This document shows positions 2,050 through 62,820 of a stretch of 64,000 nt of DNA, piece by piece (position 1 is the stretch's first letter; every line of letters begins with the position of its first letter). Position numbers and translations under genes: made by a program. The DNA is taken from the NCBI GenBank assembly GCA_000004985.1, contig GG738849.1; one strand, written 5' to 3'. Source of the DNA: Naegleria gruberi. Its lineage: Eukaryota. A model generated the notes under the pieces. It ran no database searches. It was given only the letters and a program-made list of their open reading frames with translations, and had not been told where the DNA came from.

Positions 2050-3801
2050 ATGGCACCTCTCACTATTCGCAAACAAGCCACACAACCAATCCCAGGACAA
2101 AAGATGGGTACAAGTGGTCTTCGTGTCAAAGTTAAGCTTGTTGAAAATACACCATCTTTCCTTGAAAATTTCTCCCAAAGTGTATTCAATATTATTCTCT
2201 CATCGGAACAAGGATTGATCGGAAAGGTAAATGATCAAGGATGTTTACAAATGGTTATTGGTGGAGATGGTCGTTATTATAACAAGAAGGCCATTCAAAC
2301 CATCTTGAAGATTCTCTATGCTAATGCTGTTGCTCGTAATTTGAAAATTCATGTTAGAGTTGGGCAGGATGGTGTTGTTTCTACACCTGCAGTTTCGTGT
2401 ATGATTAGAAAATATAAGGCCGAATTGGGTGGTTTGATTTTGACAGCATCTCACAATCCTGGTGGTCCAAATAATGATTGGGGAATTAAATACAATGCAC
2501 CAAATGGAGGACCTGCTCCTGAAAAGATTACTGACATTATTTATCAACAGTCAACTCAAATTACTGAATATCATACTTGTGATGAATTCCCAGAGATTGA
2601 TTTTTCTCACATTTCTGATGTCTTTTCTGATGAACATTTGAAAGTTTCAGTTATTGATCCTGTAGATGACTATTATGAATTGCTCAGTACAATTTTCGAT
2701 ATGGAAAAGATTAAGAAATTAATTCAAAGGGATGATTTCAATTTATTGTTCGATGCCATGCATGGTGTCACAGGTCCCTATGCCAAGAGAATTTTACATG
2801 AGAAATTAGGAGCTGATCCTCAAAAGAATTTGATTAATTATGTTCCAAGTGAAGATTTTGGAAAGGGTCATCCAGATCCAAATCTTACCTATGCTGAAGA
2901 ATTGGTCAAGAAGGTATTGAATGATGAAAATAGTATTATTGATTTGGGAGCTGCATCTGATGGTGATGGTGATAGAAACATGATTCTTGGTAAACACTTT
3001 TTTGTCACTCCTTCTGATTCTGTTGCAATTATTGCTGATTATGCACAAAGGTGCATTCCATATTTCCAAAAGAGTGGAATTTCTGGATTGGCTAGATCCA
3101 TGCCAACTAGTACAGCCCTCGACAGAGTTGCTAAAGCTCTGGGTGTAAATATTTATGAAGTACCTACTGGATGGAAGTATTTTGGTAATTTATTTGATGC
3201 TGGTAAACTCTCTATTTGTGGTGAAGAGTCATTTGGTACTGGAAGTGATCATATCAGAGAAAAGGATGGTATGTGGGCTGTTTTGAGTTGGCTCTCAATA
3301 ATGGCATTTGAAAATGAAAATACCAAAACCTCAGTTGCAGACATTGTAAAGAATCACTGGAAGAAATATGGTAGAAGCTATTATACCAGATATGACTATG
3401 AAGAAGTTAGCTCTGAAGGTGCCAACAATATGATGTCTCACATTAGAGATACCTATGTTACTCCATTCCAAACTAATTCTCTCTCTGAAGAATCTAAAAA
3501 GTTATTCGAATCTTTGAGTGTTGCTTCATGTGAAGAATTCTCCTACACTGATCCTATTGATAACAGCTTTACTGGAAAGCAGGGAATGATCTTCAAATTG
3601 GTTGACCAAAGTAGAATTGTATTCAGATTATCTGGTACAGGAAGTTCTGGAGCAACTGTTAGAGTTTATATGGAAAAGTATAATCCAGATCGTTTGGATG
3701 GAAACCCACTCGAAGAAGTCAAACCACTTGCCCATGTCGCTCTCACTGTTAGCAAACTAGCTGAATTCACTGGTAGAAATGAACCAACAGTTATTACTTA
3801 A
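2050..3801 (+). CDS. PGM: Phosphoglucomutase (583 aa, single exon)
   Basis: The ORF carries the phosphoserine loop TASHNPGG, the metal-binding motif DGDGDR and the sugar-binding motif GEESFG. The start is an ATG. Confidence 0.95.
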   Translation: MAPLTIRKQATQPIPGQKMGTSGLRVKVKLVENTPSFLENFSQSVFNIILSSEQGLIGKVNDQGCLQMVIGGDGRYYNKKAIQTILKILYANAVARNLKIHVRVGQDGVVSTPAVSCMIRKYKAELGGLILTASHNPGGPNNDWGIKYNAPNGGPAPEKITDIIYQQSTQITEYHTCDEFPEIDFSHISDVFSDEHLKVSVIDPVDDYYELLSTIFDMEKIKKLIQRDDFNLLFDAMHGVTGPYAKRILHEKLGADPQKNLINYVPSEDFGKGHPDPNLTYAEELVKKVLNDENSIIDLGAASDGDGDRNMILGKHFFVTPSDSVAIIADYAQRCIPYFQKSGISGLARSMPTSTALDRVAKALGVNIYEVPTGWKYFGNLFDAGKLSICGEESFGTGSDHIREKDGMWAVLSWLSIMAFENENTKTSVADIVKNHWKKYGRSYYTRYDYEEVSSEGANNMMSHIRDTYVTPFQTNSLSEESKKLFESLSVASCEEFSYTDPIDNSFTGKQGMIFKLVDQSRIVFRLSGTGSSGATVRVYMEKYNPDRLDGNPLEEVKPLAHVALTVSKLAEFTGRNEPTVIT

Positions 3802-18457: not shown

Positions 18458-18560
18458 ATTACACTATTTCACTTCTACAAATTAGACCAATATTGTATTT
18501 CGTAATTATGAGGTGTGCTGATTAGAATTGAAAATTCAAAACATTTTAAAGAAGAAAAAA

Positions 18561-20735
18561 ATGTCTGCACTTGATAGGTTCACCTCTCCAAGTACTGCAA
18601 CGAGATTCGAATTTGATGCCTATTATCATGCTAAAAGTTTTCTCTCCTCACCATTTACTCTGTTCCTTAAAAATAGATCTTGCTCGTATTATCATCCCGA
18701 AATTAATTGCACAGAGCTGAATAAGATCTTATCCTTTGGCAGTAATCATGCCAAGTTTGGCCAATGGATAACATGGAAAGATTTAAAGCTTAAAACTAGT
18801 CATTGTGAGGAGGAGATTTTACTTGTTGATTATTTTGCAAATAATTTAACATTACCAACTGCTGTTGTGGATAGTAATGTAACAGAGATCATGGTTCAAC
18901 ACTTGAAGGAGTTGGATGGTGCAGTTCTTGTTTGTGAATTTAGCGTTGAGAAGACTGATGCAGAGTTTGATGTATGCTTGTCATTCTTTCAAGTAGATGC
19001 CACAATATTGAAACGTATCAGCTCTTCATTCCAAATAGTTCAAGATCTGTTCAAATATGAAGAGTACGGTAGATGTGGACTTATTTTTGAGCTATTGGAT
19101 GAGTATTTTGTAGATGTACTTTTTTCTATTGATGGAATTGAGTGGAATATCATTAACAGAGGAAGTGACTGGAAATTAATTCAAAAAGATCCAAGCCAAT
19201 ACATTTTTGTGACTCCAAAGTTAGAAAGTGAAAGGGAGTACTTTTTCAAACTTGTGGTCATTTCAAAGAGAAATACGTGGATATATCATGACTTGGGTCA
19301 ATTATATCCAGAATCAGTACTTTCTTCAGGTCTGTTGCCCTCATTGGTCAATGAAAATGTAAAACATATTGTTGATGGTTGTGTCCTTGCTTCAACTCAT
19401 CCAAACATGTTCCACCTTAAATTTGATAATTATCCACTCTTTCACCTAGGTTGCTCAATTGTAAAATCCCCAGCGTTCCATAATGAATTGAATTCAGCGT
19501 TGCAAGTTGTAGTAGAAGCAAGTGCTATTAAGAAATATGAAGAACCATTGTGGAAAGAAATAACTCCAGTTGGGCATGAACTAAACTCTGAACAATTGAA
19601 ATCATCAGCTATAGATACAAAAGCAAGTTACAAAGCACGATTGTTTATTGCTTGTAAGTTTGATCGTTTCAGAATTGGAAATATTACACCAAAAAGCAAC
19701 CCAGTGACCATTCCGAGTTCATTAATGATGTGGAATGAGATACCACATGTAGGCGAACTCTCTATGGTTCATGATACATTCCTTAAATTAACTTCAAAGA
19801 CACCAATATTTTTCGTCTTCCTTCCACAAGATGCCTATTCCAAGTTATACAATTTTACAATTCAAGCAAGGTTAAAAAGGTCAAATAATGAATCAGATTG
19901 GGTCACTTTAGATACTGAACCTGCAGTTACTGGATTCCATTTAAAAATGCAAGGCAATGTTGTAAAATGCTCAGCTAAATCCCATCAATTATTAGAGTAT
20001 GGAAAAATATACTCTGTTAGAATAATGGCAAGCTATAACAATTGCAGACCTATTATTGTAAAGGAATTTTCAAAGACCATTCCCAAGTTTAATTATATTC
20101 CTAATCTCACAACTGATATTTTGGAAAGAAACGGAGGAATGTTGATTTTCAATACTGAAAGTTATTATATTTATTTAATGTTGGATGGCACTATTATAAT
20201 AGTTGATCCAACTGTAAAATATCAGTGGAATGATACTAGAATGTTTGTTGGAACCTTTAGATTTTGTGATTTGTTGGATGAAAATGTAATGAGACCATTC
20301 TTCCTCCAATCATTTGCTACTATTAATGATGAAATGGTGGATGAAGTAATTGACACATCAAAATGGCAATTGATTACTCGTGTGGAAGCAACAATTGACC
20401 ATCATCCAACCCACAATCTTAGACTTCCAAAAGAAACTTTTAATTATTACTTTGATATTATTTTCGATCACGAATTGAAGAAATACCAACTCGTAGATAA
20501 ATCCGAGCTCTTTGGTGATGTACATCGAGTAGTTAGTGTCAAATGGAGAAATGAAGAGCTTTCCAATGCCATTATAATGGATTATTACTCTCATTCTAGT
20601 CAATTAGATCAACGGAGAATATGTGGGGTCAATCACGAGAATGAATATCCTCAAAGAGCAATTCAATGGTATTCTGATTTTTATATACAAAATAGAATAC
20701 AATTTAGTGATATGACTTTTGATTTTACAAATTAG
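18561..20735 (+). CDS. Hypothetical protein (about 724 aa from the first ATG)
   Basis: This is a long ORF with protein-like composition. The track start at 18528 is TTG and the first ATG is at 18561. I recognise no family. Its stop at 20733..20735 overlaps the last exon of the convergent gene by 11 nt. Confidence 0.5.
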   Translation: MSALDRFTSPSTATRFEFDAYYHAKSFLSSPFTLFLKNRSCSYYHPEINCTELNKILSFGSNHAKFGQWITWKDLKLKTSHCEEEILLVDYFANNLTLPTAVVDSNVTEIMVQHLKELDGAVLVCEFSVEKTDAEFDVCLSFFQVDATILKRISSSFQIVQDLFKYEEYGRCGLIFELLDEYFVDVLFSIDGIEWNIINRGSDWKLIQKDPSQYIFVTPKLESEREYFFKLVVISKRNTWIYHDLGQLYPESVLSSGLLPSLVNENVKHIVDGCVLASTHPNMFHLKFDNYPLFHLGCSIVKSPAFHNELNSALQVVVEASAIKKYEEPLWKEITPVGHELNSEQLKSSAIDTKASYKARLFIACKFDRFRIGNITPKSNPVTIPSSLMMWNEIPHVGELSMVHDTFLKLTSKTPIFFVFLPQDAYSKLYNFTIQARLKRSNNESDWVTLDTEPAVTGFHLKMQGNVVKCSAKSHQLLEYGKIYSVRIMASYNNCRPIIVKEFSKTIPKFNYIPNLTTDILERNGGMLIFNTESYYIYLMLDGTIIIVDPTVKYQWNDTRMFVGTFRFCDLLDENVMRPFFLQSFATINDEMVDEVIDTSKWQLITRVEATIDHHPTHNLRLPKETFNYYFDIIFDHELKKYQLVDKSELFGDVHRVVSVKWRNEELSNAIIMDYYSHSSQLDQRRICGVNHENEYPQRAIQWYSDFYIQNRIQFSDMTFDFTN

Positions 20736-23393
20736 ATGGTTTGGTATCTTTAGAGATGCGATCTTGGCACTTTTCAATCATATGAGCACATGGCTTATCT
20801 TCAACACCTTCTGTTTTCTCAATATGAATGGATTGATATTGTTCAAAATATTCAAGGGCCTCATTAAAGTGACCTTGTTTAAAGCTTTCAATTCCCTTAT
20901 TGTAAATTCTCCACTTGTCCACTTGCTCTTTTTGCTGCAATTCATACATCCCTAAGTAATTATGATATTCACAAATGAAAAAACAATATCAACTTACATT
21001 CATCCATGTTAACTTGTTTTGAATCTCCAACCTCATAAATTGGTGTCTTTTCACCACTCTTTGATTTTCTATTGGACATAATTGGTTCAAATGTATTTTC
21101 ATTCACTAATTTCTTCCATGATACCAATCTAGTCGAGTGAACATCAGCAATTTCCTGGTAAACATGATCTGTGATTAAAAAGTTAACATTAAGCTTGGAA
21201 GTTAAACTGATTAAAAATTCAAGATTTTCTTGATAACTGCCTAAAATTGAGAAGGTTTTAACATCTCTAGTACCAACGTTACCAACTTTGTTTTGCTGTG
21301 AAACCATGGCACAAAGGAAAGATATGGATGAAGAACATTTCAATTTTTGTAATTGACCTTGAAGTTGTGTCATGCAGAATAAACCTTTTTCTTCTGCTTT
21401 GGCGCTTTCTGATGTAGCATTAAAACTAAGAATGATGGTACTCTTCTCAAAATTGCCAACCAATGCATTGTTTAAACTTGCATGTCTTTGAATTACTGTG
21501 AAAATTTCAGTAAGCACGACAGTAATATCATGTTCTTTCAATTCATTAAGTAGTTCGTTGAGCCCTTCGAAATATATCATTGCACTCACCACCCTTCTCT
21601 TTTCCAGACCTAATTTAAAAATGGAATTATGAAAACCAGAAGAATGAGCTCCAATCTTGCTATGATGAGATGACTTTGAGAAGGAAAGAGATGTAAACTT
21701 GTTACTCGAATGATGTTTAGATTCTTCGTGTGAACGTGTGTCATTACTATCCAATTTGCTCAACAAGTGAGGTGGAAGGAAACTTCTAAATAATTTCATC
21801 TTTTTCACCATGAACAATACATGTTCTTGGATTTCAGAAACTTCCTTCAATGGTGATGCAACCTTCAAGCCCTCAATTTCGTCCAATTGCATTTCTGAAA
21901 TGAATTCAAATTGGGTCATTAACTTTTTGAAAGGTGTAACAATTCTTGTACTGAACCAAATACCTATCAAAATTGCAGAGATTGTAATAATGACACTCAC
22001 AATAACGGCAACTATCACTGCAATTACAATGGAAGATATGTAGTTCCACTGTGGCACTGCAAAGATTATCATCCAATTCAACAATGTTGGAGTGCACAAT
22101 CTATAGAGTCCAACATAATAAGAACTAACTGTTGTGAATTTGAAAGTTGAACATTTCATAGATTTGAGATCATTCCCTAAAGATTCATAAACAGCAGATC
22201 CAATATCTCTCACTTGTGGAATATCAAAGTTCTTAACAGTCTTTCTTGTTTCCTTTCCACTTTTATCCCATTCAGAAACTGGAATATCAGGGTAGTTGGC
22301 TAATTATTATTGAAACAGTTTAAAACAGGAATATTAAAAAAACATACTTGCAATAATAGCGTCAGTTTTGATCTCAATAACAACTGCCAGTGAGTTCATA
22401 ATATCACTTGTAAATTCAAGCAAGTATTGGGATAGAGAGTGAACTGTCAGATCAATAGCAAAATACCAATCAAAAGTGGATGAGCCAGGAACTGAGTGAA
22501 CACTTACACATGAGAACCAAACCCACAGTGGATATCCTGAATCTGTGTAAGAGTCAGAAAATCCGGTTGAGTTGAGTAAGTTTTGGGCTTGTTCCACTTC
22601 AGTTGAAAGATCAAATGTTGGTTTAATCTTATCCCATGTTGGACCTTTTCTAACACAGCTAGTGTGAGAGGAGTCAAAATCACAAGTTTTGTAATAAGCT
22701 CCTGTTGAATTAATCACAAATAATGATAGATACATTTCAGGTGATTTAGCAGCTCTAGATTGACTGCTAGTTATACCCTTATTACCTCCCAATACATCTC
22801 CAAAATATGAATTGATGAAAAGACCATTTATGTAAGCTTCCTGTGATTTATAGGTCATGAAGGTCTTGTCAATTAACCACTCGTCACGATTATAATAATC
22901 CATATCATTCCACACAGAGTTCCTTACAGTTTCAGTGGCCATTGCTACCTGTTGTTAGGAATTTCCACATGTTTGTCAATTTTACACTAAATTCAAACCG
23001 TCAACAACAAACCTTATTCATGGTAGAGTCTATAAATTCAGTCATACTAGAGAATTGAGACTCCATTAAACTATTACTCACAGATGTAACACTCCCAGCA
23101 AAACTAGATACCCAAACTATGGTTAATAAGATTACAGAAACCACCAAAACAAACAATAATAAGAGTATTAAGCTTGATTTGATGGTTATTTTCTGAGAGG
23201 AACGCTTATTTTGTTGTTTGATTTGAGCACCATCATCTGACGAATTATCATCAATTATTGGTTCCAAAGGAGAAACAGCACTAATAGTAAATCCATCATT
23301 TGATTCGGTAAGGTGATTTTTGGATGTTGGTGTCCTATTTGTTGTATATACAGATACATGTGGGGGCAATGGTGTAACCTTAGAAGCGACCAT
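20725..23393 (-). CDS. Receptor-type membrane protein with divergent class-III nucleotidyl-cyclase homology domain, 4 exons (836 aa)
   Basis: Exons are 23393..23013, 22948..22348, 22299..20998 and 20951..20725, with introns of 64, 48 and 46 nt. Exon 1 has donor AAG|GTTTGT. All frames were verified across the junctions. Layout: an N-terminal region, TM1, an extracellular domain, TM2, then a cyclase-like domain (RRVVSAMIYFEGLNEL...GNVGTRDVKTFSILGSYQENLEF). The canonical metal-binding Asp residues and the GDxY motif are replaced. Confidence 0.6.
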
Positions 23394-37289: not shown

Positions 37290-40172
37290 ATGGGGATTTT
37301 TAAACCTCATTCTTCATCAGGCAACACGATAATACTGATAGGAGATGAAAGTTATTGGATTCCAACAATAAGATTGTGGTTGATGCCACTTCAATTACCA
37401 CCAGCACCACTTGAAAAAATGAACAGAAAACCAACCCTAAGAAAACGGGCCAAAAACGTCTCGTACTATGAAGGAAATAATCAAGTTATTTTAGAAGAAG
37501 ACGAAGAAGAAAATGAAGACGAAGTTGAAGAGGAAGAGGAGGAAGATGAAGCTGTTGTGGAGTTTGATGAAGAGGATGATGATGAAGAGATGGAGGCCTA
37601 TGTAGATTCTACAAAAGAGGAACAGATCAACAATACTAGTAGCAATAGTAGTAATAGTAGTGAATCTGATGAGGAACAAGTTCCGAAAAGAAAACAACCA
37701 TCACGGTCAAGAAATCAACCTAAAAGCCAATCCAAAAATCAATCAAAAGTTTCCAGTACTAGAAGAGGTTCATCTTCAAAGAAGATGGAAATATCAACCA
37801 CAACAAGTGAAAGTGACAATAACTATGAACCAACTAAAAAAACTAGGCAAACTCCAAAGAAGAAAATTACAAAATCCACCACCTCTGCCTCTAGAGGTTC
37901 GTCATCTTCTAATCGTTCCAAATCACCTTCTACTCAGACATCCTCAAGAAAGAGGAGAAAGGAGTCCGAAAGTGAGGAGCTCTCTGATAATGACGAAGAA
38001 ACCTATGATAGTGATAGTTTCATTGTAGACGATGAAAATGAATCAAGTGAGGAAAATAATGATGAGGAAGATAGTGAAGGTACTACAAAGAAGAGGAAAA
38101 CAAAAAAGACTTCAAAAACTTCTAGGAAATCGAGTAGCAATACTACTTCTAATGGCTCCTCGAATAGATCTCAATCAACAAGCCGATCTAAAACTGTCAA
38201 CTCCAAGAAGAAGAAAAAGTCACCCAACACTGTTCAGAATTTATTTGAAATATTTGCGATTGAGAAGGATACGATCGCAGAACAGAATAGGCAACGATCC
38301 AAGCTCATTAATGAATCCGAAAGTGAAGAAGAGGAAGAAGCCTACTCAACCAGTGATAATGAGGCACAAAAACAACAGAATAAGAAAACCTTTGCCGACT
38401 TGGAATTGGCACCTATTGTAGAACATGATGGACTCATTAATCCATATAACAAAAATAGGTGCGAACAAATTCCTCTTCCTCAACACAAACATTTGGATGA
38501 TGAACAATACGATAATTACATGAATGAGAATAATAACGAGTAAGTAGTTCTTTTCAATATGGAAAGATATTCTAACTTGAAATTTAGTCATTCTCTCGCA
38601 GTAGGAGTGAAGCTAACTGGAATGGACGAGTATGAAAGCTTAATACAAAGAAGAGTCAGACAAAGAAAGGAAGATGAAGGAATAGAGGAAGAGGAGGATG
38701 AAGTGCCAGCCAATTTACAGGATGAAAGTTACATATCCGAGCTCATAAAAATGTCTGTCGGAAAGCAAGCAAGTTACAAAATCAAACCATTCAAAGGAGG
38801 CCACTATATTAATTGTGACTTGAGATATTTTACCTTGTCCTCACTGGGTAAATTTGATGTAATATTAATTGATCCACCTTGGAGAGTTATTCAGAGTAGA
38901 CCACAGGAGGCCATGATGTTCAGTAATACCAACTTTAAACTAAATTATAACACTCTCTCATACGAGGAAATTATGGATATTAATGTGGGATCATTGTGTG
39001 ATCAGGGGTTCTGTTTCATGTGGGTTCTCAATTCATCTCTTCAATTTGGACTCAATTTACTGAATCATTGGGGATTTTCCTATATTGACAAGATTACCTG
39101 GATCAAAAAGACAAAGAATGATCAAATATTTGCAGGTACAGGTTATTATTTCCTTCACTCAACTGAATTACTGCTAGTTGGCGTAAAGCATGGCTCAACA
39201 AAGAAAAATGGGCAAAAGTTGCAATATATTTCCAAAATTACCAACGATATTCTCTTCTCAAAAGTTGGTATCCAATCCCAAAAACCAAACGAAGTATACG
39301 AGATTATCGAAAGCATGGTACCAGGAGCTAGAAAGATTGAAATATTTGCAAGAAATCACAACATTAGAAAAGGGTGGCTGAGTATTGGTAATAGATTGGG
39401 TGAAGCATTTGATAAGGAAATGACAAGCTATTCATGTCACAAGTGTGATAAGAATTTATTCTCACCTGACTTTATGGGAACTGATAAGAATATTAAGAGG
39501 TTTAAGAGCTGTAAAAATCCAAAGGTTAATCTCTGTGAAAAATGTTCATCTAAATTTTCAGAAGATTATGGGCCATATTTTATATTTGAGAATACTTGCA
39601 CAGAACCAATTTTCCACGATTGGTATTCTTGTGATGTTTGTGAGATGTATCCTATTTGTGGAGCTAGGTTTTCATGTAAAGATTGTTCAGGAGATTTTGA
39701 TGTTTGTGAGGATTGTTTTGATAAGGTCATGACAAAAGATTCACATGAACATAGATCAGATTCATTTACTGCAATTGAATATCCAGATCCTGGCTGTGGT
39801 TATGCAGTTCATGTTGATAAGAAATGTAGCTCTTGTCTGGCTTGTCCTATAATTGGTGAAAGATTTATGTGTACGGAGTGTAAGGATGTTAACTTATGTA
39901 GAAAGTGTTTCTTCCTTCAAAAAGAGCCCAAGACACACAAATGCACTCACGAAATTTCAATGATACCCGAGCCAAGACATGCCCACCAAAAACTCAAATG
40001 TGCTGGTTGTGGAACAGTGGGACTCCAAGCACCAATCCACAAATGCAAAACATGCATGTCTTTCATCCTTTGTAATAAGTGCTATGATGTCCATGAAACA
40101 TGTTATGACTCACTCAAGTTGGACAAGTTTACAACACACAAACAATTCCACTCATTTATGAGAATGAAATAA
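37290..40172 (+). CDS. MT-A70-family N6-adenine methyltransferase with acidic/Ser-rich N-terminal region and C-terminal array of ZZ-type zinc fingers, 2 exons (about 945 aa)
   Basis: Exon 1 is 37290..38539 with donor GA|GTAAGT. A 48-nt intron with a TTCTAAC branch motif follows. Exon 2 is 38588..40172. The catalytic core reads VILIDPPWRV...CFMWV...LLLVGVKHG...EIFARNHNIRKGW. At least five Cys-rich ZZ/ZnF units follow (CDVCEMYPICGARFSCKDCSGDFDVCEDCF and others). Confidence 0.75.
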
Positions 40173-55452: not shown

Positions 55453-58400
55453 ATGGAAGGTGTGAGAGAGATTGAAGATGATATTTCATCATCATCGTCA
55501 TCTGTTGCAGAATTAGTTACGGATTTTCAATCAATTGGTAAAAATTTAATTCAAGATCATCAACAGTATGATGGGACATCAGATAATTTTCTGATGAGTT
55601 ATTCACTCTCATTTAGGAATGACAACACAACACAGGATTTGGAGGCTAATCTAAATCCGAAACGAGATGAAAATGAAAATAATAATAACACAAAGTGGAC
55701 ACCAACGGATAGGCCAATAGGAGCACAAATAGGATATAATCTTGAAGATGATGAATATTTATTGGTTGATGTTGGAGATAAAGGTGATTTATATACGAGT
55801 CAAACATTTATCAACTCTTCAGTAGTGACAACACCTAGACATGTGGCTTATCCATCCGTAATTCCAGAAAGTTCTGAAGTATTTTTTGATATTCCACATT
55901 ACAGTACGGATACAGTCAAGTTGGATCTCGATATTTTGGGAAGTGGCTCGGATATTCAAATAAGCTCTGTAATTGATAATTCAAAGGAGTATAAAAGTAT
56001 TGGAAGTTATTTGTATCCTACCAATAGTACTACCCCAACAGTAGATTTAGTTCCCCTTCTTCAGTCTCAAATAGGATTGGGATATGTAAATAATTTATTA
56101 CTGACAGAAGCTGATGTGTTGGATTATTTGGGGAAGCATACCTTTAGTATGGATCATGAATTTTACATAATGTGCTATGAATATTATCAATCCTTTTCAG
56201 AGTTGACCAGACTGAGATCTGAAATGGACCACCTACTCACTGAACAAGAAAATATCGAAAGAAATTTATTTATTTTAAATGAACAACAGATAAAATCTCC
56301 CATGTGTGATTGTGGGGATGGATACCAAGTACATGGTTATGTAAAGGCACTCACTGCCACTTTGGATCACAAGCAAAAGAGTAACCTGATCAAAAATCAA
56401 GAAAATCTGAGGAATCTCTATCACGACAAGATTGTAGAGGTAAACATGTTGAACAGATATTTCCATCTTAAAGTTTCCCGATATATTGGAGATATTATTC
56501 AAAACGAACCTCTATTTAACAATTATCTGAGGTACGAGCTTTACACCTTGTCGGTAGAAGATATGATGCACAAGCAGAATTTAAGAGTAGAACAAGACAT
56601 TGCTGCGGTTGATAGACTTAAAGTTGTCATTCAAATACTACTCTATTTCGAGCAAGTATCATGTGAAATTACAACTCTTCATGTTCCTAAAGGATTCTCT
56701 CCTGTTTCTGTAACCATCAGTGGGGAAAATATAGAAAATTTTAGGAAGGAAATTAGGGATTGGGCTTATCTATCAATTGCCTCGCTATTGAGGGTCTCAA
56801 CAGTGGAAGATAATAGGTTTTTAATCTTTGAAATTCTTAAATGCAAACATATTGGAAGTTGGGGGCAAACTTTCCTTCAATTTCCAGGAGTAGATTCTGA
56901 TCAAGCAATTGATACATTTTTGGCATTCCTTTCCCTCTTCTTAACACCAACATTTATAACTGAGAATGAACTAGTTTTGTCAGAAGAAGATTACTTGTCA
57001 TTGTGGACACAAGTTCCTCTTTTTGAAAGTATGGAATACATACTTTCCAAGTGTACTGAGCAATTTGGACTCAACCAAAGCAACTCTACCTTCTCCTCAT
57101 TTTCACAAGCCTTCTCCTTAATTGATACAGTGTTGTACATTTTCTATCAGGCTTTGAGCAATTTCAACAAATCTTCTAATCACAAATCATTTACTAGAAT
57201 GCTCTCTCAGAATATGGCAAGGCTCGTTCAAATGGCTTCCAACTCGCTTGCACAAATAGAAGGGACAAGTCAAGAAGATGTTGAATATCTGTTCAATTCC
57301 TTCTATGTAAAGTGTTTCAAAGGTTTACTTTCATCCTCATCGAGCTTGTGGTCCTTCCTTTCTGAGCTACCATATGAAATTATTTCAGAGCCTTGTGCAT
57401 GCTCGATATTTTGGATTATGTTTCGTGATGAACCTGTGATTGATCTCAAAATAACTTATGATATTTTGAGAGATTTTGATTCATGGCTCAAATTGGTCAC
57501 TGAAGATAAGAGTTTGAGAAATAATTTTATCACACTCTTCCAAAAACCAGAGTGTAGTTATTTATTTCCTGTAATGTCAAGATTGGGCTGTTCTCATTCA
57601 TACGGTCTCGCTGCCATTATAGTTCACGAGCTATTCTTGATTGGTTTCATTAATGAAACTTCTAGAGATACCTATTTTAGAGATGCTACAAAGAATATTG
57701 TTTCAATATGTGAGATACATCCCCGATTGATATCATTACTGCTTGCACTTGTTGTTAAATACTTAAAGTTTGTAGGAAGGTATTCCCTTACCATGTTTAA
57801 ACAACTTGATTTAAAGACGTGGAAATTATCCAAAACAAAAGACTTACCGCTATTGGAAGAGTTAATTCTCAAACCACTCAACTCTACGGAACATGAGCTT
57901 GCCAGATTCATCATAGATCATTTGGCTTGGAATGATTCTACAAAAAACAAGAACTTGACATTGGATGTGCAGAAGGATATACTTTTATTGATGGCAAGAA
58001 CAGTCTCAACACACAAGAAGGATTCACAATATTCCTTCGTTAAAAAGGATCCATGGATTGGTCTCGAGGAATGGTGTTGGTCTGTTGCTCAGAGGGTTAA
58101 AATCTATGACTCTGTCCAAACACCACTCATTCCTATTGAGTCGATTGAACATCCCTCTCTCAATGGACTTTTACATACGATTGAACTATCTGTGAAAAGT
58201 GGCTCAATAGATGGAGTTAGTATATATGCTGTTTTGGCCTTGAGTGATGTAGGCAACAATTTGGAAAAGTATAATGAATATTCATCTGGTTGGTTTGAAG
58301 CTATTGTTAACAACAAGACACAAGAAAGAGCAATCAGACTAATGTATGAAATCAGCATGAGGTTTTGTGAACAAGTCAAGTCTCAAAGCTCAGGAGTTCG

Positions 58401-61400
58401 TACGCCAACAAACCTCACATTCTATCCTCACATGGATAGTATTTTGTATTTGGATACCAAATCTTCATTCATTTCTAGATTGGTCAGCTCGAACAGATAT
58501 ATTGGTGATAATACTCAAAGTCTTTCTACATGCATTTGCAAAGGTATTCAGAGTTTACATGCCTCTGAGAAATTGAACAAGTTGAGAAGTTTTACTCTAT
58601 TTTGGGTAAATGAAATTACGAAAATTTCTAATTGGACCAATAATCCATGCTGCCTCTTCCTTATGAATCAAATTTCCAAAGTAATAATCCACTTGAATAT
58701 GATTAATGTTACAGGTATTTCAAATATCATTTCAACTCTACCTGAAATGGATATGTTTGCTCTCCAATCTTCTGGAATATTTACCTCTTCATCCACTGTA
58801 ATTACCACTTCTGCATTCAATAAGGACATTAATCCTCAGATTCAATATCCATATTTTTCTTTTATTTATTTGATTGGATTGTCGTTATCAGAGTTTCACA
58901 AACGTCAACAAGTTGCCAATTCTCTTTTCGAAATGAGAAATACTTTCCCAACTGCTGTAAAATCCTTTGAGGCAGTTAAATTCTGTATTTATAGAGTATT
59001 GGCATATTGTGTCAAGTTGACAGAGCAGCTATTGGATACCAGTCAATCACCAACAGATGTCACTAATATTCATTCCATTCTTCCAATGTACTGGCAATTA
59101 TTTTTCCACTTGTACTTTGAAAAGCAATTCACTCCAATGAATACTGTAAGATTTTTCGGCTATCAATTTCTTGAAATACCAACAAAGGAAAAGATTTTCA
59201 CATCAGTTCTCGACAGGTTAGAATCTCTAAAGAAATTCTACACAGAGACACAAAACACTAGTTTTACAACACGAGGAGAGTTGATTGACTTGTACTATGC
59301 AATGATATTATGGCTTAAAGGCACCAAAGATAACTTTTTATACTTTATTGATCAAATATCATCAATTAGCAAGTTTCATCAACCTGCCAGAATTGTTAGT
59401 TCAATTAATGATGACATTGCAAGAGATACTACCAAGTTATGGCATGATTTGATTGATAATATTAACATACAGGAACTTATTAGTAGTGAAGAAAAGAATT
59501 ATATTTCCTCTATTTATCCAACTTTTACTAGCCAATCAAGCACTCTGTCAATCAAAAGCCGATCTTTAGTATTTAATAACCAAAAGATTGATATAATCTT
59601 TTTAAAGCAGAAGGAAAAGGAAATAATGAAGTATTTACCATCTGTTACCATAACTCAGGAACCATTCCCACGAGGATTTATTCTCAATTTGAGTGATTTG
59701 AATGCTATGAAAATTACACAATCCATTGATATTTACCTCAAAGAAAAAGAAATGCAAAGAAGAGCAGACGAGGAATATATTTCCCTCATACCTTATCTCT
59801 ATTTTGAGGTAAAGAAGCAAGCCTCTCTTTCAGTTCCATGCTATAAGGAATTTTTCTGTAAAAGACCAGCCAATATTTACTTCTCCTATTCAGAATCAGT
59901 TAAAAATAATAATAATGAAACTAGAATGAAGGAAAATAGATCATTGGTTATGCGAATTATGGATTCTAAATATGTTGATCATTCACTTTGCAATTTATTG
60001 TATGAATTGGATGTAACTCTAAGAAATGTCAACTCTCAAGGGTTGGGTAGCAAACTTTTCTATGGTCTTTTGCAAATTCACTTTGTTATGTGTGATAGGT
60101 TTGTTCCTTTCAGAAAGATTATGAATCACATCGTATCACAATTTGCTTCCACATTTATAATGAATCAACCAACTGAGATGGAGAGTCTATTGATGAGTAT
60201 GGTTCAAAGTAATGCCTTGATATCTTTACTTTCTCCATTTTTTAATCCTTTACTTTGTCCAGAGTCTTGGGAACGATTCCTTGAAATCATTTTGAACAAG
60301 AAGAAGGAAAACCCTTCAAGTATGTCCCTTCAGATTTACAAAAACTTTGACATCCAAAAGTGGTTGGCATCGTTTTATAATATTGAAAATATTAAATCAC
60401 TGATGGCTCACTCAGTGAGAAATCTCAGAAATTGCAAGATGAATGAGGTAATTGCATTCTATCTTACACTTATACCTGCTTGCATCAATAGTTACCCTTC
60501 TAACTTGTTGGCATTTACATTCTCTCACATGTATTCGTGCATGTTAGAGCTTCCATACCAATTATTAGAATCCTGCAATGACACTATGAGTTTTGAGAAT
60601 TTTGATGATTCATTACTCTGTGATTTTATAGAAATTACCAGAGAATTCTTATGGAACGTCAGAAAAAAGCACAACAACACTCTTTACAATGCTTTGCCAA
60701 AGGAATATTTGAAGGAGATTGTAAGGTTGTTGGAGAAATTTGTTTGTTTTTCTCATCTCAGCAATAGTTTCCTCCAAGAAGGCCAAGTTTTTGAAAAAGT
60801 TTGCAGAGGATATGAAGCATTCATATTGCCAGTTCCAGCCAAAACTAATCTCTCAACATCTGGAGATGTGACAATTCTTCCCTTCCTTGATAATCAAGCT
60901 TCTATGGCATCTTCAGTTCTGGCAAGTTTCGTCAGATGCAATAAGCGTCTCTTGGAATCTAACAAGGGTATTCTCAATCAAGTTTGGAACATTTATTCAC
61001 AACTTATTTTCAATAACATTCTTGATCCAGACTGTCTAAACATGTATCATCAGGAATTGATGTATCTGGATTGGTCAAATTGGACAACAATTAATTTTGA
61101 ACAAATTTCACAAATGTGTGCCATTTTAGAAGTCTCTCCACAGAGAACAACCAAGACAATTTTGTCTGGTCACAGAATATTCGTCAAGAATATTATCAAG
61201 GTCATGTCTTGGAAGATTATTACAGATAATATCGTATTGTGTCATTTGAGTAGTGAAGATATTAGTAAGGTCTATTCGGATATTATTTCCTTGATGGTCT
61301 CCTCTATTCTCAAGTCTACAACACCACAAGTGGATGAAAGTTTGGCTGAATGTGTTGAAAAACTTTTCAATTTTAATATTGAATGGAATAGAATTACTGT

Positions 61401-62820
61401 GGAACATTTTTCAAATATTTTGAAACTCTATAGCAAGCTTTTTATTGAGGTTAAGAACTTTTCATACAATATTCCAAAAAGAAACCTCGATCTCTGCTTT
61501 TCAATTCTTCAAAATGTTTGTCAACCAAGAGAGTCAACAGCCAGCAATAGCTACCCTTCAGCTAACCAATACGATGATTATCCAAATGTAAATCCAAACT
61601 ATCAATCCAATAAGCCACTCACTCTCTACTATATTGATTTTATTATTAGTACTCTGGTTTATAGTTTTTCCTCCAAGCAAACTAGTCCTTCAGTAGTGGA
61701 TAATTATCTAGCAGAGCAAATTACACAACCTTTCGATTGGATTATTGATACAATGGCTCATTATTATGATTACAACTCGTGCACAGAACATTTTGTTCAA
61801 TTGCTAACTTTTACAGATCGTAACTATGCAGAATTTGATACTATTTTCCAATTTATTATTGAAAAGGCATTCCAACACCCAAGCAAATTGTCTATTTGTT
61901 TGTTCTCAGCTGCTCAATCGGTTAAAAATTATTTGAAATCTACGATATTAATGGAATTTGCTCTTAGATCTCATATTAGTCAACCTAATGTTTCTTTCAA
62001 TTATTTAACATCTATTCTATGGTTGCCACCACATGAAGCTCAAAGAAGACAGTTTGCATCTGCATGTATTGAGAAAGGTTGCTCATTGTTGTACTTTGTT
62101 CAAACTCTCAAAAGAATACAAGAAGAGCATGACACTCCACTGGTAATATTTGAAAAGATAATTGAGGAATTTATATTTAATTCCAATGTATTCTGTCCAG
62201 ATCAAGTGAATATTGTCTCACAAATCAAATCCTCCAACATGCTTCGACCAGAGCAATATCTCATTCCAATATGGTCACTCTATGTGAATGTTTTAATAGA
62301 AACGAGACCTGCATCATTCTCCAGTGTCATACCAATAACACAGGGCTATTATTTGAATTTATTACTAGATAAGAACCATAACAAGCTCCCTCCTCAACAG
62401 TACTATCCTGGAGTGGATGGAATATTGTCCCTCTCTAATCTCTTACTCACCATCAGTGAGGACAGAACAGTGGAGAGTACATTCGGCAAGTTAGTTTCCT
62501 TTTTCTCTAAAAAGAGTGACTTTGAGGTTTATAGAAATGATTTCAAATTCTTTTCCAGAGTTTTGGGAGTGTACTTGTTGAAATTCACTGCTAAATATCA
62601 TGTGAACGATCAAAAAGCCATTCAGGAATATCAAAAGTTGAAATCTACACTTGACAAGTACTTTACCAAAACTAGTGACACAAAGGAAAGAAATGCATTG
62701 GAAGTTTTGAACAATTACCTTAATTTATATGGAGAAACCAATTACTTGTTCGGATTTGTTTCCTTGATGGTTGAGCTGATAGGTATTCTTTTTGAATCTT
62801 CTACCTTTCCTAAGTTTTAA
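55453..62820 (+). CDS. Very large uncharacterised protein (2455 aa, single uninterrupted ORF, predominantly alpha-helical Leu/Ile-rich)
   Basis: A 7.4-kb ORF with no stop cannot be chance at about 35% GC. I see no nucleotide-binding or other diagnostic motif. It is in the size class of large helical-solenoid trafficking, autophagy or ciliary scaffold proteins. Confidence 0.7.
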   Translation: MEGVREIEDDISSSSSSVAELVTDFQSIGKNLIQDHQQYDGTSDNFLMSYSLSFRNDNTTQDLEANLNPKRDENENNNNTKWTPTDRPIGAQIGYNLEDDEYLLVDVGDKGDLYTSQTFINSSVVTTPRHVAYPSVIPESSEVFFDIPHYSTDTVKLDLDILGSGSDIQISSVIDNSKEYKSIGSYLYPTNSTTPTVDLVPLLQSQIGLGYVNNLLLTEADVLDYLGKHTFSMDHEFYIMCYEYYQSFSELTRLRSEMDHLLTEQENIERNLFILNEQQIKSPMCDCGDGYQVHGYVKALTATLDHKQKSNLIKNQENLRNLYHDKIVEVNMLNRYFHLKVSRYIGDIIQNEPLFNNYLRYELYTLSVEDMMHKQNLRVEQDIAAVDRLKVVIQILLYFEQVSCEITTLHVPKGFSPVSVTISGENIENFRKEIRDWAYLSIASLLRVSTVEDNRFLIFEILKCKHIGSWGQTFLQFPGVDSDQAIDTFLAFLSLFLTPTFITENELVLSEEDYLSLWTQVPLFESMEYILSKCTEQFGLNQSNSTFSSFSQAFSLIDTVLYIFYQALSNFNKSSNHKSFTRMLSQNMARLVQMASNSLAQIEGTSQEDVEYLFNSFYVKCFKGLLSSSSSLWSFLSELPYEIISEPCACSIFWIMFRDEPVIDLKITYDILRDFDSWLKLVTEDKSLRNNFITLFQKPECSYLFPVMSRLGCSHSYGLAAIIVHELFLIGFINETSRDTYFRDATKNIVSICEIHPRLISLLLALVVKYLKFVGRYSLTMFKQLDLKTWKLSKTKDLPLLEELILKPLNSTEHELARFIIDHLAWNDSTKNKNLTLDVQKDILLLMARTVSTHKKDSQYSFVKKDPWIGLEEWCWSVAQRVKIYDSVQTPLIPIESIEHPSLNGLLHTIELSVKSGSIDGVSIYAVLALSDVGNNLEKYNEYSSGWFEAIVNNKTQERAIRLMYEISMRFCEQVKSQSSGVRTPTNLTFYPHMDSILYLDTKSSFISRLVSSNRYIGDNTQSLSTCICKGIQSLHASEKLNKLRSFTLFWVNEITKISNWTNNPCCLFLMNQISKVIIHLNMINVTGISNIISTLPEMDMFALQSSGIFTSSSTVITTSAFNKDINPQIQYPYFSFIYLIGLSLSEFHKRQQVANSLFEMRNTFPTAVKSFEAVKFCIYRVLAYCVKLTEQLLDTSQSPTDVTNIHSILPMYWQLFFHLYFEKQFTPMNTVRFFGYQFLEIPTKEKIFTSVLDRLESLKKFYTETQNTSFTTRGELIDLYYAMILWLKGTKDNFLYFIDQISSISKFHQPARIVSSINDDIARDTTKLWHDLIDNINIQELISSEEKNYISSIYPTFTSQSSTLSIKSRSLVFNNQKIDIIFLKQKEKEIMKYLPSVTITQEPFPRGFILNLSDLNAMKITQSIDIYLKEKEMQRRADEEYISLIPYLYFEVKKQASLSVPCYKEFFCKRPANIYFSYSESVKNNNNETRMKENRSLVMRIMDSKYVDHSLCNLLYELDVTLRNVNSQGLGSKLFYGLLQIHFVMCDRFVPFRKIMNHIVSQFASTFIMNQPTEMESLLMSMVQSNALISLLSPFFNPLLCPESWERFLEIILNKKKENPSSMSLQIYKNFDIQKWLASFYNIENIKSLMAHSVRNLRNCKMNEVIAFYLTLIPACINSYPSNLLAFTFSHMYSCMLELPYQLLESCNDTMSFENFDDSLLCDFIEITREFLWNVRKKHNNTLYNALPKEYLKEIVRLLEKFVCFSHLSNSFLQEGQVFEKVCRGYEAFILPVPAKTNLSTSGDVTILPFLDNQASMASSVLASFVRCNKRLLESNKGILNQVWNIYSQLIFNNILDPDCLNMYHQELMYLDWSNWTTINFEQISQMCAILEVSPQRTTKTILSGHRIFVKNIIKVMSWKIITDNIVLCHLSSEDISKVYSDIISLMVSSILKSTTPQVDESLAECVEKLFNFNIEWNRITVEHFSNILKLYSKLFIEVKNFSYNIPKRNLDLCFSILQNVCQPRESTASNSYPSANQYDDYPNVNPNYQSNKPLTLYYIDFIISTLVYSFSSKQTSPSVVDNYLAEQITQPFDWIIDTMAHYYDYNSCTEHFVQLLTFTDRNYAEFDTIFQFIIEKAFQHPSKLSICLFSAAQSVKNYLKSTILMEFALRSHISQPNVSFNYLTSILWLPPHEAQRRQFASACIEKGCSLLYFVQTLKRIQEEHDTPLVIFEKIIEEFIFNSNVFCPDQVNIVSQIKSSNMLRPEQYLIPIWSLYVNVLIETRPASFSSVIPITQGYYLNLLLDKNHNKLPPQQYYPGVDGILSLSNLLLTISEDRTVESTFGKLVSFFSKKSDFEVYRNDFKFFSRVLGVYLLKFTAKYHVNDQKAIQEYQKLKSTLDKYFTKTSDTKERNALEVLNNYLNLYGETNYLFGFVSLMVELIGILFESSTFPKF

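Follow-up and report, generated by a model that had tools for sequence, protein, structure and literature searches.

A gene-dense stretch of 64,000 nucleotides (nt) from Naegleria gruberi (assembly GCA_000004985.1, contig GG738849.1; G+C content 34%), here called the window, carries on its minus strand a gene of four exons for a predicted membrane receptor. The gene corresponds to locus NAEGRDRAFT_63107 with a fourth exon added, and its spliced coding sequence of 2511 nt, interrupted by three introns, is in frame and encodes 836 amino acids (aa). The predicted order along the protein is a cytoplasmic N-terminus, a first transmembrane segment (TM1), an ecto-domain, a second transmembrane segment (TM2), a HAMP-like segment, a transducer-like motif, a Ser/His linker, a cyclase homology domain (CHD) and a TPR-like tail. 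In this study, we found that the CHD has the homology and the predicted fold of a class III nucleotidyl cyclase and has lost most of the catalytic residues of such an enzyme. The best reading of the gene, which we consider probable, is that it encodes a receptor-type pseudo-cyclase of N. gruberi. The coordinates of the gene and its parts are collected in Table 1.

The initial annotation had seen a class III nucleotidyl-cyclase-like domain in the intracellular part of the protein. Pfam PF00211 gave no match even at E<10, either with the whole protein or with the isolated domain, and it was also without a match in seven close paralogues; among 57 wider relatives, it was matched by 21, with a best E value of 5e-12. 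A search of PDB sequences with the single protein returned nothing beyond weak TPR hits. A word-indexed homology search gave no match with the full protein and two with the family alignment, its index being saturated or insensitive for a family so rich in low-complexity sequence. With the exon 3 product as the query, an exhaustive phmmer search yielded 393 relatives at E<=1e-3, 41 of them at E<=1e-30. A 34-sequence alignment of the CHD (A1) was used as a profile against PDB sequences and for AlphaFold2 modelling. The A1 profile matched Pseudomonas aeruginosa CyaB (3r5g) at E=3.9e-12, Cya2 (2w01) at 6.3e-11 and CyaC at 1.1e-8, with weaker matches to photoactivated cyclases (OaPAC, 7e-6) and mammalian VC1 (9e-4), and the full-length profile A2 recovered the same set of class III cyclases in PDB. 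In addition, the canonical CHD of the relative P0127 found exon 3 by tblastn at E=8e-6.

The AlphaFold2 model of the CHD built from the A1 alignment reached a predicted local distance difference test score (pLDDT) of 92.8 and a predicted template modelling score of 0.88, while exon 3 modelled from the single sequence reached a pLDDT of 43. The CHD model has the cyclase fold, a beta-alpha-beta-beta-alpha-beta core with a dimerisation arm. When it was compared with PDB by Foldseek, the top 50 matches were all class III cyclases (best E=6e-13, template modelling scores 0.70-0.76). The profile, Foldseek and tblastn matches together indicate that the cyclase similarity is real homology and not chance. 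The absent PF00211 match of the single sequence at E<10 and the empty word-indexed search could be taken to mean that the resemblance is a chance pattern and the domain something else, but profile, fold and pairwise tblastn all point with high significance to class III cyclase domains. The probability of a chance resemblance is negligible, and it was ruled out by the A1 profile and the Foldseek fold matches; the silence of Pfam on the receptor protein is a matter of sensitivity and not evidence against homology. These results demonstrated, by profile comparison and structural modelling, that the intracellular domain shares true homology with the catalytic domains of class III (bacterial IIIb-like) adenylate/guanylate cyclases and has their predicted fold. 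The class III assignment of the initial annotation was thus borne out at the level of both profile and fold.

The catalytic residues were mapped by hidden Markov model profile alignment to CyaB and checked against the secondary structure of the AlphaFold2 model (Table 1). The register agrees with the model, in which G573 stands directly before helix 1 and S614 directly before strand 3. The roles of the six catalytic positions are established for class III cyclases. Five of the six are substituted in the receptor protein, and Asn686 alone remains. Tyr and Ser (Y570 and S614) take the place of the two metal-binding Asp residues. The pair that specifies the substrate, Lys with Asp/Thr for ATP or Glu with Cys/Ser for GTP, is replaced by N610 and S678. 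In the Asn-x-x-x-Arg transition-state pair, N686 is present and L690 stands in place of Arg. By this alignment, E572 is not a metal ligand; it falls on the third position of 'D-I-x-G-F-T', a variable one that mammalian C1 fills with Glu. The strings that the initial annotation had read at these sites are present, AMIYFEGL at residue 567, GNFEKS at 609 and ILGSYQENLEF at 679. Its claim that the canonical residues are lost held for both Asp residues, in a register that differs from the one it gave, and the substrate Lys is lost as well; the loss that it placed in the 'FGDTVN' motif concerns the Arg four residues after the Asn, and the Asn itself is kept.

Class III active sites are composite: one subunit gives the two Asp residues, and the other gives Lys, Thr/Asp, Asn and Arg. 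Since the receptor protein can supply neither set, a homodimer would be without a site and a heterodimer would have two incomplete ones. On these residues, neither a homodimer of the protein nor a heterodimer containing it would make cyclic AMP or cyclic GMP (cAMP/cGMP) by the canonical two-metal mechanism. By its predicted catalytic positions, the CHD is not to be filed as a cyclase enzyme.

Table 1. Parts of the receptor gene with their positions in the window, and catalytic positions of the cyclase homology domain (CHD) aligned with CyaB
Feature	Position	Strand	Residues	Description
Whole gene, ATG to stop	20725..23393	minus	836 aa	NAEGRDRAFT_63107 / XP_002681856.1 plus fourth exon
Exon 1	23013..23393	minus	1-127	Cytoplasmic N-terminus, TM1, start of ecto-domain
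Intron 1	22949..23012	minus		64 nt, GT..AG
Exon 2	22348..22948	minus	128-328 (last codon split)	Core of ecto-domain
Intron 2	22300..22347	minus		48 nt, GTATGT..TAG
Exon 3	20998..22299	minus	328-762	End of ecto-domain, TM2, HAMP-like segment, transducer-like motif, linker, CHD
Intron 3	20952..20997	minus		46 nt, GTAAGT..TAG; deposited reference model reads through
Exon 4	20725..20951	minus	762-836 plus stop	'WMYEL' helix and one TPR-like repeat
TM1	23106-23174	minus	74-96	Hydropathy
Ecto-domain	22043..23105 (spans introns 1 and 2)	minus	97-413	Family alignment A5
TM2	21962..22042	minus	414-440	Hydropathy
HAMP-like juxtamembrane segment	21794..21961	minus	441-496	P450 and E480; HAMP hit of P0079
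'LFRSFLPPHLLSKL' motif	21746..21793	minus	497-512	Near-invariant P503; family conservation
Ser/His-rich low-complexity linker	21620..21745	minus	513-554	Variable across family
CHD, predicted catalytically degenerate	20999..21619	minus	555-761	Profile against PDB, AlphaFold2 model, tblastn
TPR-like repeat	20815-20916	minus	774-807	Pfam TPR_1, designed TPRs in PDB
Metal Asp 1			Y570	CyaB FFSDIRGFT; Y-F-E-G-L-N-E opposite D-I-R-G-F-T-E
Substrate Lys			N610	CyaB DKFVGD
Metal Asp 2			S614	CyaB DKFVGD
Base-specifying Thr (Thr/Asp)			S678	CyaB YTIIGRE-VNLASR
Transition-state Asn			N686, kept	CyaB YTIIGRE-VNLASR
Transition-state Arg			L690	CyaB YTIIGRE-VNLASR

The same positions were then counted in 51 close relatives, of which those named are Naegleria proteins. 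The first metal-binding Asp was found in none of them, and Tyr, His, Leu, Lys or Phe was found there instead. The transition-state Arg was likewise absent from all 51 (Leu, Met, Ile or Val in every case), and the substrate Lys was present in one. The transition-state Asn was kept in 46, and Thr/Ser occupied the base-specifying position in 39. At the second metal position, Asp was found in 24 and Asp or Glu in 32, and S614 of the receptor protein is unique among the 51. In contrast to these losses, the family shows no variation at N621, G667-N668-x-G670 and R718 and almost none at H629 and E612. The family-wide loss of the first Asp, Lys and Arg, set against the invariance of N621, GNxG and R718, points to purifying selection on a non-catalytic function. 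As judged from these alignments, the catalytic degeneracy is old, family-wide and coupled with purifying selection, a pattern that marks a pseudo-enzyme rather than a gene in decay. The receptor protein itself has K613 and S614 in place of the N-D of the family and thus lies farther from the catalytic consensus than most paralogues; together with the unique S614, this would fit a decaying, functionless relic of a cyclase gene. However, the reading frame is intact over 836 codons with canonical splice sites at its three introns, N621, G667, N668, G670, R718, the four Cys residues of the ecto-domain, P450, E480 and P503 are all kept, and the AlphaFold2 model is confident. A 65%-identical fragment from another sample (P0017) also indicates that a close relative is maintained elsewhere. 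A relic is therefore highly improbable.

Several observations weigh against a pseudo-cyclase. Residue 612 is Glu or Asp in 46 of the 51 relatives and residue 613 is Asn in 41, which gives an acidic/amide cluster in the turn between strands 2 and 3. This cluster occupies the turn where the catalytic Lys and Asp normally sit, and the Asn and the Thr/Ser are also kept. By sequence, it may represent a shifted or single-metal catalytic centre, or a site for nucleotide binding. In addition, the predicted inactivity is read from residue identity only, and the dCache, HAMP and TPR assignments described below come from transitive or sub-threshold matches. The main rival explanation is accordingly that the protein is an active nucleotidyl cyclase with a non-canonical site, made for example of E612, or of position 614 in the paralogues, with N621 and N686. 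In its favour, the turn that usually bears Lys and the second Asp is just where the F-E-N-(D) motif of the family is found, N621, H629 and R718 are invariant or nearly so, Asn686 and Ser/Thr678 are kept, and some mycobacterial cyclases tolerate non-canonical substrate residues. Nevertheless, the residues that replace the first Asp in every member (Tyr, His, Leu, Lys or Phe) cannot ligate a metal in the same way, the position of the transition-state Arg is hydrophobic throughout, and K613/S614 depart even from the putative site of the family. To our knowledge, loss of either Asp abolishes activity in all tested class III enzymes. The substitutions of Asp and Arg in every member, together with K613/S614, weaken this explanation, and we regard it as unlikely.

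The initial annotation had also suggested that the protein might dimerise with a catalytic partner. It would then be paired obligatorily with a canonical cyclase paralogue in an active heterodimer, of which it would form the non-catalytic half, as in C1/C2, the alpha/beta subunits of soluble guanylate cyclase (sGC) or NeoR/RGC. Class III domains act as dimers with composite sites, and canonical proteins with the same dCache/HAMP/CHD/TPR-like layout exist (P0131 and P0129). Receptor-type heterodimers with one inactive cyclase half are known (PMC10622942), and Naegleria has many possible partners, at least 81 membrane cyclases according to a pangenome study that cites the 2010 genome paper (PMC9928731). 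However, both Asp residues and also Lys and Arg are lost here, which leaves neither composite site complete, so that pairing would silence the partner rather than complement it. Within the 64-kb window, the tblastn search with the P0127 CHD gave no other convincing match, and no other CHD gene that could serve as a partner was found. Since both half-sites are degenerate, the catalytic-partner option amounts at best to a dominant-negative or regulatory pairing, and rescue is unlikely. With neither the Asp pair of a C1-type subunit nor the Lys/Arg of a C2-type subunit, dimerisation for activity is disfavoured and quite improbable.

The known heterodimers also differ from the Naegleria protein. 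In the chytrid NeoR/RGC rhodopsin-guanylyl cyclases, the cyclase domain of NeoR is inactive alone, and CcNeoR4, which is without the transducer element and the metal-/base-binding residues, is non-functional (PMC10622942). The likeness lies in a receptor-linked CHD whose cyclase half is inactive alone. However, NeoR domains are ~50% identical to active ones and complement a partner, whereas both half-sites of the Naegleria protein are degenerate; the sensor is a rhodopsin there and an ecto-domain here, and the Naegleria family is far more diverged. In mammalian membrane cyclases (C1/C2) and sGC, whose second site is pseudo-symmetric, one composite site is fully catalytic, whereas the Naegleria subunit is without a complete catalytic set.

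The receptor part of the putative pseudo-cyclase was examined by hydropathy and family profiles. Strong hydrophobic segments were found at aa ~74-96 and ~414-440. The N-terminus (aa 1-73) is rich in Ser, Thr and Asn and has a K/R cluster ahead of TM1, and 'STRIVTPFKK' (RxxxxxKK) follows directly after TM2. The intervening loop of ~317 aa (aa 97-413) contains two NST sequons and the family-invariant Cys residues 216, 225, 377 and 396. From the basic residues on the outer flanks of both segments and the Cys residues and sequons in the loop, the N-terminus and the part after TM2 are predicted to be cytoplasmic and the loop extracellular. These features showed the gene product to be a predicted type-II-like two-pass membrane protein with a Cys-stabilised ecto-domain. 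Hydropathy and profile homology thus agree with the order that the initial annotation had given, from the cytoplasmic N-terminus through the two membrane segments to the cyclase-like domain; its extracellular domain of ~200 aa was an underestimate.

The ecto-domain had no direct Pfam hit as a single sequence and no PDB sequence hit with the A5 profile. With the A5 profile, the extracellular parts of P0064 and P0090 were matched at E~1e-27. Among the 57 wider relatives, Pfam identified dCache_1 in eight (best 1e-19), MCP-like_PDC_1 in seven and NIT in three. The dCache_1 hits of P0130 and P0134 and the MCP-like_PDC_1 hits of P0064 and P0090, of which the latter two are weak, map to aa 210-407. 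This transitive evidence suggests that the ecto-domain is probably a double-PDC/dCache-like sensor (PF02743, PF22673).

As shown by the full-length profile of the family and wider relatives, three near-invariant cytosolic residues, P450, E480 and P503, lie ahead of the CHD. Across 57-77 relatives, P450 and E480 reach a conservation of at least 90%, and they fit the conserved Pro and Glu of HAMP. In the relative P0079, Pfam found HAMP (PF00672) at E=2.7e-5 and 24.8 bits, just under the cut-off of 25, in a region that corresponds to aa 442-496; the receptor protein itself had no Pfam HAMP hit, and the TM-HAMP region of NarQ matched the full-length family profile at E=0.56. P503 sits within 'FLPPHLL', which we take to resemble the LPxxVAxxL end of the helix preceding class III cyclase domains (the cyclase-transducer element).

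At the other end of the CHD, the tail matched Pfam TPR_1 at E=0.0059 (16.8 bits against a cut-off of 27.8, aa 778-799) and designed consensus TPRs in PDB at E=0.02-0.1, with one recognisable repeat only. TPR repeats (PF00515/PF07719) are 34-residue helix-turn-helix units that usually occur in arrays of three or more. The 'DEWMYEL' motif is kept in paralogues and was found in 31 of the 51 close family sequences. By alignment, the tail (aa 762-836) is conserved across the family and weakly TPR. The TPR-like tail that the initial annotation had placed on the last exon therefore stands as a conserved element, and its TPR character is weak, below the Pfam cut-off at E=0.006.

The tail depends on the fourth exon, which the deposited model does not contain. 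By exact sequence look-up, exons 1-3 with read-through of intron 3 are identical to XP_002681856.1 (EFC49112.1, UniProt D2V2T0), which was deposited as a 'predicted protein' of 770 aa ending in ...MDECKLILFFHL. The four-exon product and a variant starting in exon 2 had no exact match in the protein collection. Splicing of intron 3 adds the 75-aa product of exon 4, with 'WMYEL' and the TPR-like tail. The exon 3/4 junction reads 'MDE' followed by 'WMYEL', a motif conserved in the family, and in phmmer searches with the full-length protein the paralogues align as far as aa ~832; the alignment with the paralogue P0001 covers query aa 52-832, end to end, at E=3e-152. Exon 4 is taken to be real because of this alignment and the conserved junction motif. 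By these comparisons, the reference annotation, being without exon 4, appears truncated at its 3' end, and the four-exon model appears to improve on it. The four in-frame exons of the initial annotation were upheld by the GT..AG introns, the length of the coding sequence and the end-to-end paralogue alignment. Exon 4 (stop codon 20725-20727, minus strand) and a convergent plus-strand open reading frame (ORF) at 18528-20735 overlap at their 3' ends by 11 bp (20725-20735). In the 50%-identity library, the P0276/P0277 cluster, which holds XP_002681856.1, has as its representative a fragment of 202 aa that is the same as the exon 2 ORF and comes from a prokaryote-style gene call on a short contig. 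Because the representative is this exon 2 fragment, XP_002681856.1 was missing from the results of the exhaustive exon 3 search. No mention of the locus tag or accessions was found in the literature searched.

The receptor protein shares its domain order end to end with the other members of the family, and N613K and D614S are its sole deviations. Full-length phmmer matches within the family range from E=3e-152 to 1e-73 over aa ~50-830, at 25-38% identity, and the family motifs are FEN(D), sfN, CGNxGT, R718 and DEWMYEL. Named members include N. lovaniensis XP_044550760 and N. gruberi XP_002682882, XP_002679045 and XP_002679537. The closest named relatives are uncharacterised N. lovaniensis and N. 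gruberi proteins of 30-38% identity; the UniRef label of the N. lovaniensis relative is 'Guanylate cyclase domain-containing protein'. Two metagenomic proteins from Logan contigs, P0131 and P0129, are fully canonical class IIIb cyclases, with FFSDIEGFT, DKYIGD and GDNVNLASRLE. Their order is a dCache-like sensor, a transmembrane segment, HAMP, '..YVP..L', CHD and a TPR-like tail. Since they are canonical and have the same layout, the architecture pre-exists in presumably active enzymes, and by these alignments the Naegleria family appears to be a derived offshoot with degenerate catalytic sites. In three of the wider relatives, from JGI metagenome contigs (P0064, P0075 and P0149), N-terminal ankyrin repeats precede the sensor, transmembrane segment and CHD, and the first metal Asp is also absent; the source annotation of P0064 and P0075 is 'ankyrin repeat protein/class 3 adenylate cyclase'.

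The literature searched contained no account of pseudo-cyclases in Naegleria or of a catalytically degenerate receptor branch. The members of the family are probably not included in the published counts of Naegleria cyclases, as Pfam misses them. We consider it somewhat more probable than its opposite that Naegleria holds a Pfam-invisible family, of at least ~50 sequence clusters, of dCache-like/HAMP-like receptor pseudo-cyclases that came from a bacterial-type dCache-HAMP-CHD-TPR architecture, make no cyclic nucleotides and signal through the TPR-like tail, through nucleotide binding or by poisoning active paralogues.

Among known systems, the bacterial class IIIb cyclases with a sensor-TM-HAMP-CHD order are the nearest; of the solved structures, that of P. 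aeruginosa CyaB (3r5g) comes closest, and Cya2 (2w01) and CyaC (1wc1) come next. The 'GNxG' strand, a Thr/Ser at the base-specifying position and the Asn are common to both. In layout, the uncharacterised P0131 and P0129 are closest, with the same '..Y(V/I)P..L' motif. However, the class IIIb proteins keep FFSDIxGFT, DK(F/Y)IGD and GDxxNxxSRLE, where the Naegleria protein has YFEGLNE, GNFEKS and GSYQENLEFL. Unlike the bacterial proteins, it is also eukaryotic and spliced, its ecto-domain is of a disulfide type, and a Ser/His-rich insert precedes its CHD. Among eukaryotic receptor-type adenylate cyclases, trypanosome GRESAG4/ESAG4 (1fx4) and Dictyostelium ACG are catalytically competent and cross the membrane once; their sensor is periplasmic-binding-protein-like or of another kind, and both the HAMP-like segment and the TPR tail are absent from them; the Naegleria CHD is structurally nearer to the bacterial IIIb enzymes than to these. 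The fold matches of the CHD also included 6yii, a P. aeruginosa 'class III adenylyl cyclase-like ATP-binding protein', which, next to the NeoR cyclase half, serves as a precedent for a non-catalytic CHD. This protein differs in being soluble, in a bacterial transcription-regulator context and not a membrane receptor, and its similarity to the CHD is 11% over the aligned residues.

If the protein is a receptor-type pseudo-cyclase, a ligand would bind the dCache-like ecto-domain, and TM2, followed by the helices of the HAMP-like and transducer-like parts, would relay the signal to a CHD dimer. The CHD would act as a conformational or scaffolding module, possibly one that binds a nucleotide without turnover, and not as an enzyme. 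The output could be the presentation of the conserved 'DEWMYEL' motif and the TPR-like tail to downstream partners as a protein-protein surface. Alternatively or in addition, active cyclase paralogues might be sequestered in inactive heterodimers. The initial annotation's proposal of a pseudo-cyclase receptor is supported to this extent: five of the six canonical residues are substituted, and inactivity is what we infer from them.

Elsewhere in the window, a phosphoglucomutase ORF at 2050-3801 is open over 583 aa and identical to a deposited N. gruberi protein of 568 aa except for 15 aa. These 15 aa are encoded by an in-frame 45-nt GT..AG stretch (3457-3501) that was removed as an intron in the deposited model. 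The annotated intron is probably spurious, because in N. lovaniensis and Willaertia the orthologues align over all 583 aa of the ORF. The plus-strand ORFs at 18528-20735 (735 aa) and 37290-38543 (417 aa) had no Pfam match at all and may be lineage-specific proteins. An ORF at 38559-40172 (plus strand) combines an MT-A70 (m6A-methyltransferase-like) domain with ZZ-type zinc fingers, and another at 55453-62820 (plus strand) is very long and uninterrupted, at 2455 aa.

Proteins of the sensor-TM-HAMP-CHD type are common, CHDs without activity have been described before, and the gene, too, had a database entry, so that the finding is an extension and not a new principle. In this study, a last exon missing from the reference gene model was added, and a confident structural model and a residue map were defined for the CHD. 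The unusually large set of Naegleria membrane cyclases, at least 81 in the pangenome study (PMC9928731), is thought to underlie environmental sensing. If the pseudo-cyclase reading is true, the sensory wiring of Naegleria would not simply be many receptors feeding cAMP/cGMP, and the quoted count of its cyclases would miss a whole non-enzymatic branch. The family would be a eukaryotic counterpart of the receptor pseudokinases, and pseudo-cyclases could be added to pseudokinases and degenerate GGDEF/EAL domains as a further example of a recurrent route by which enzymes are turned into signalling scaffolds.

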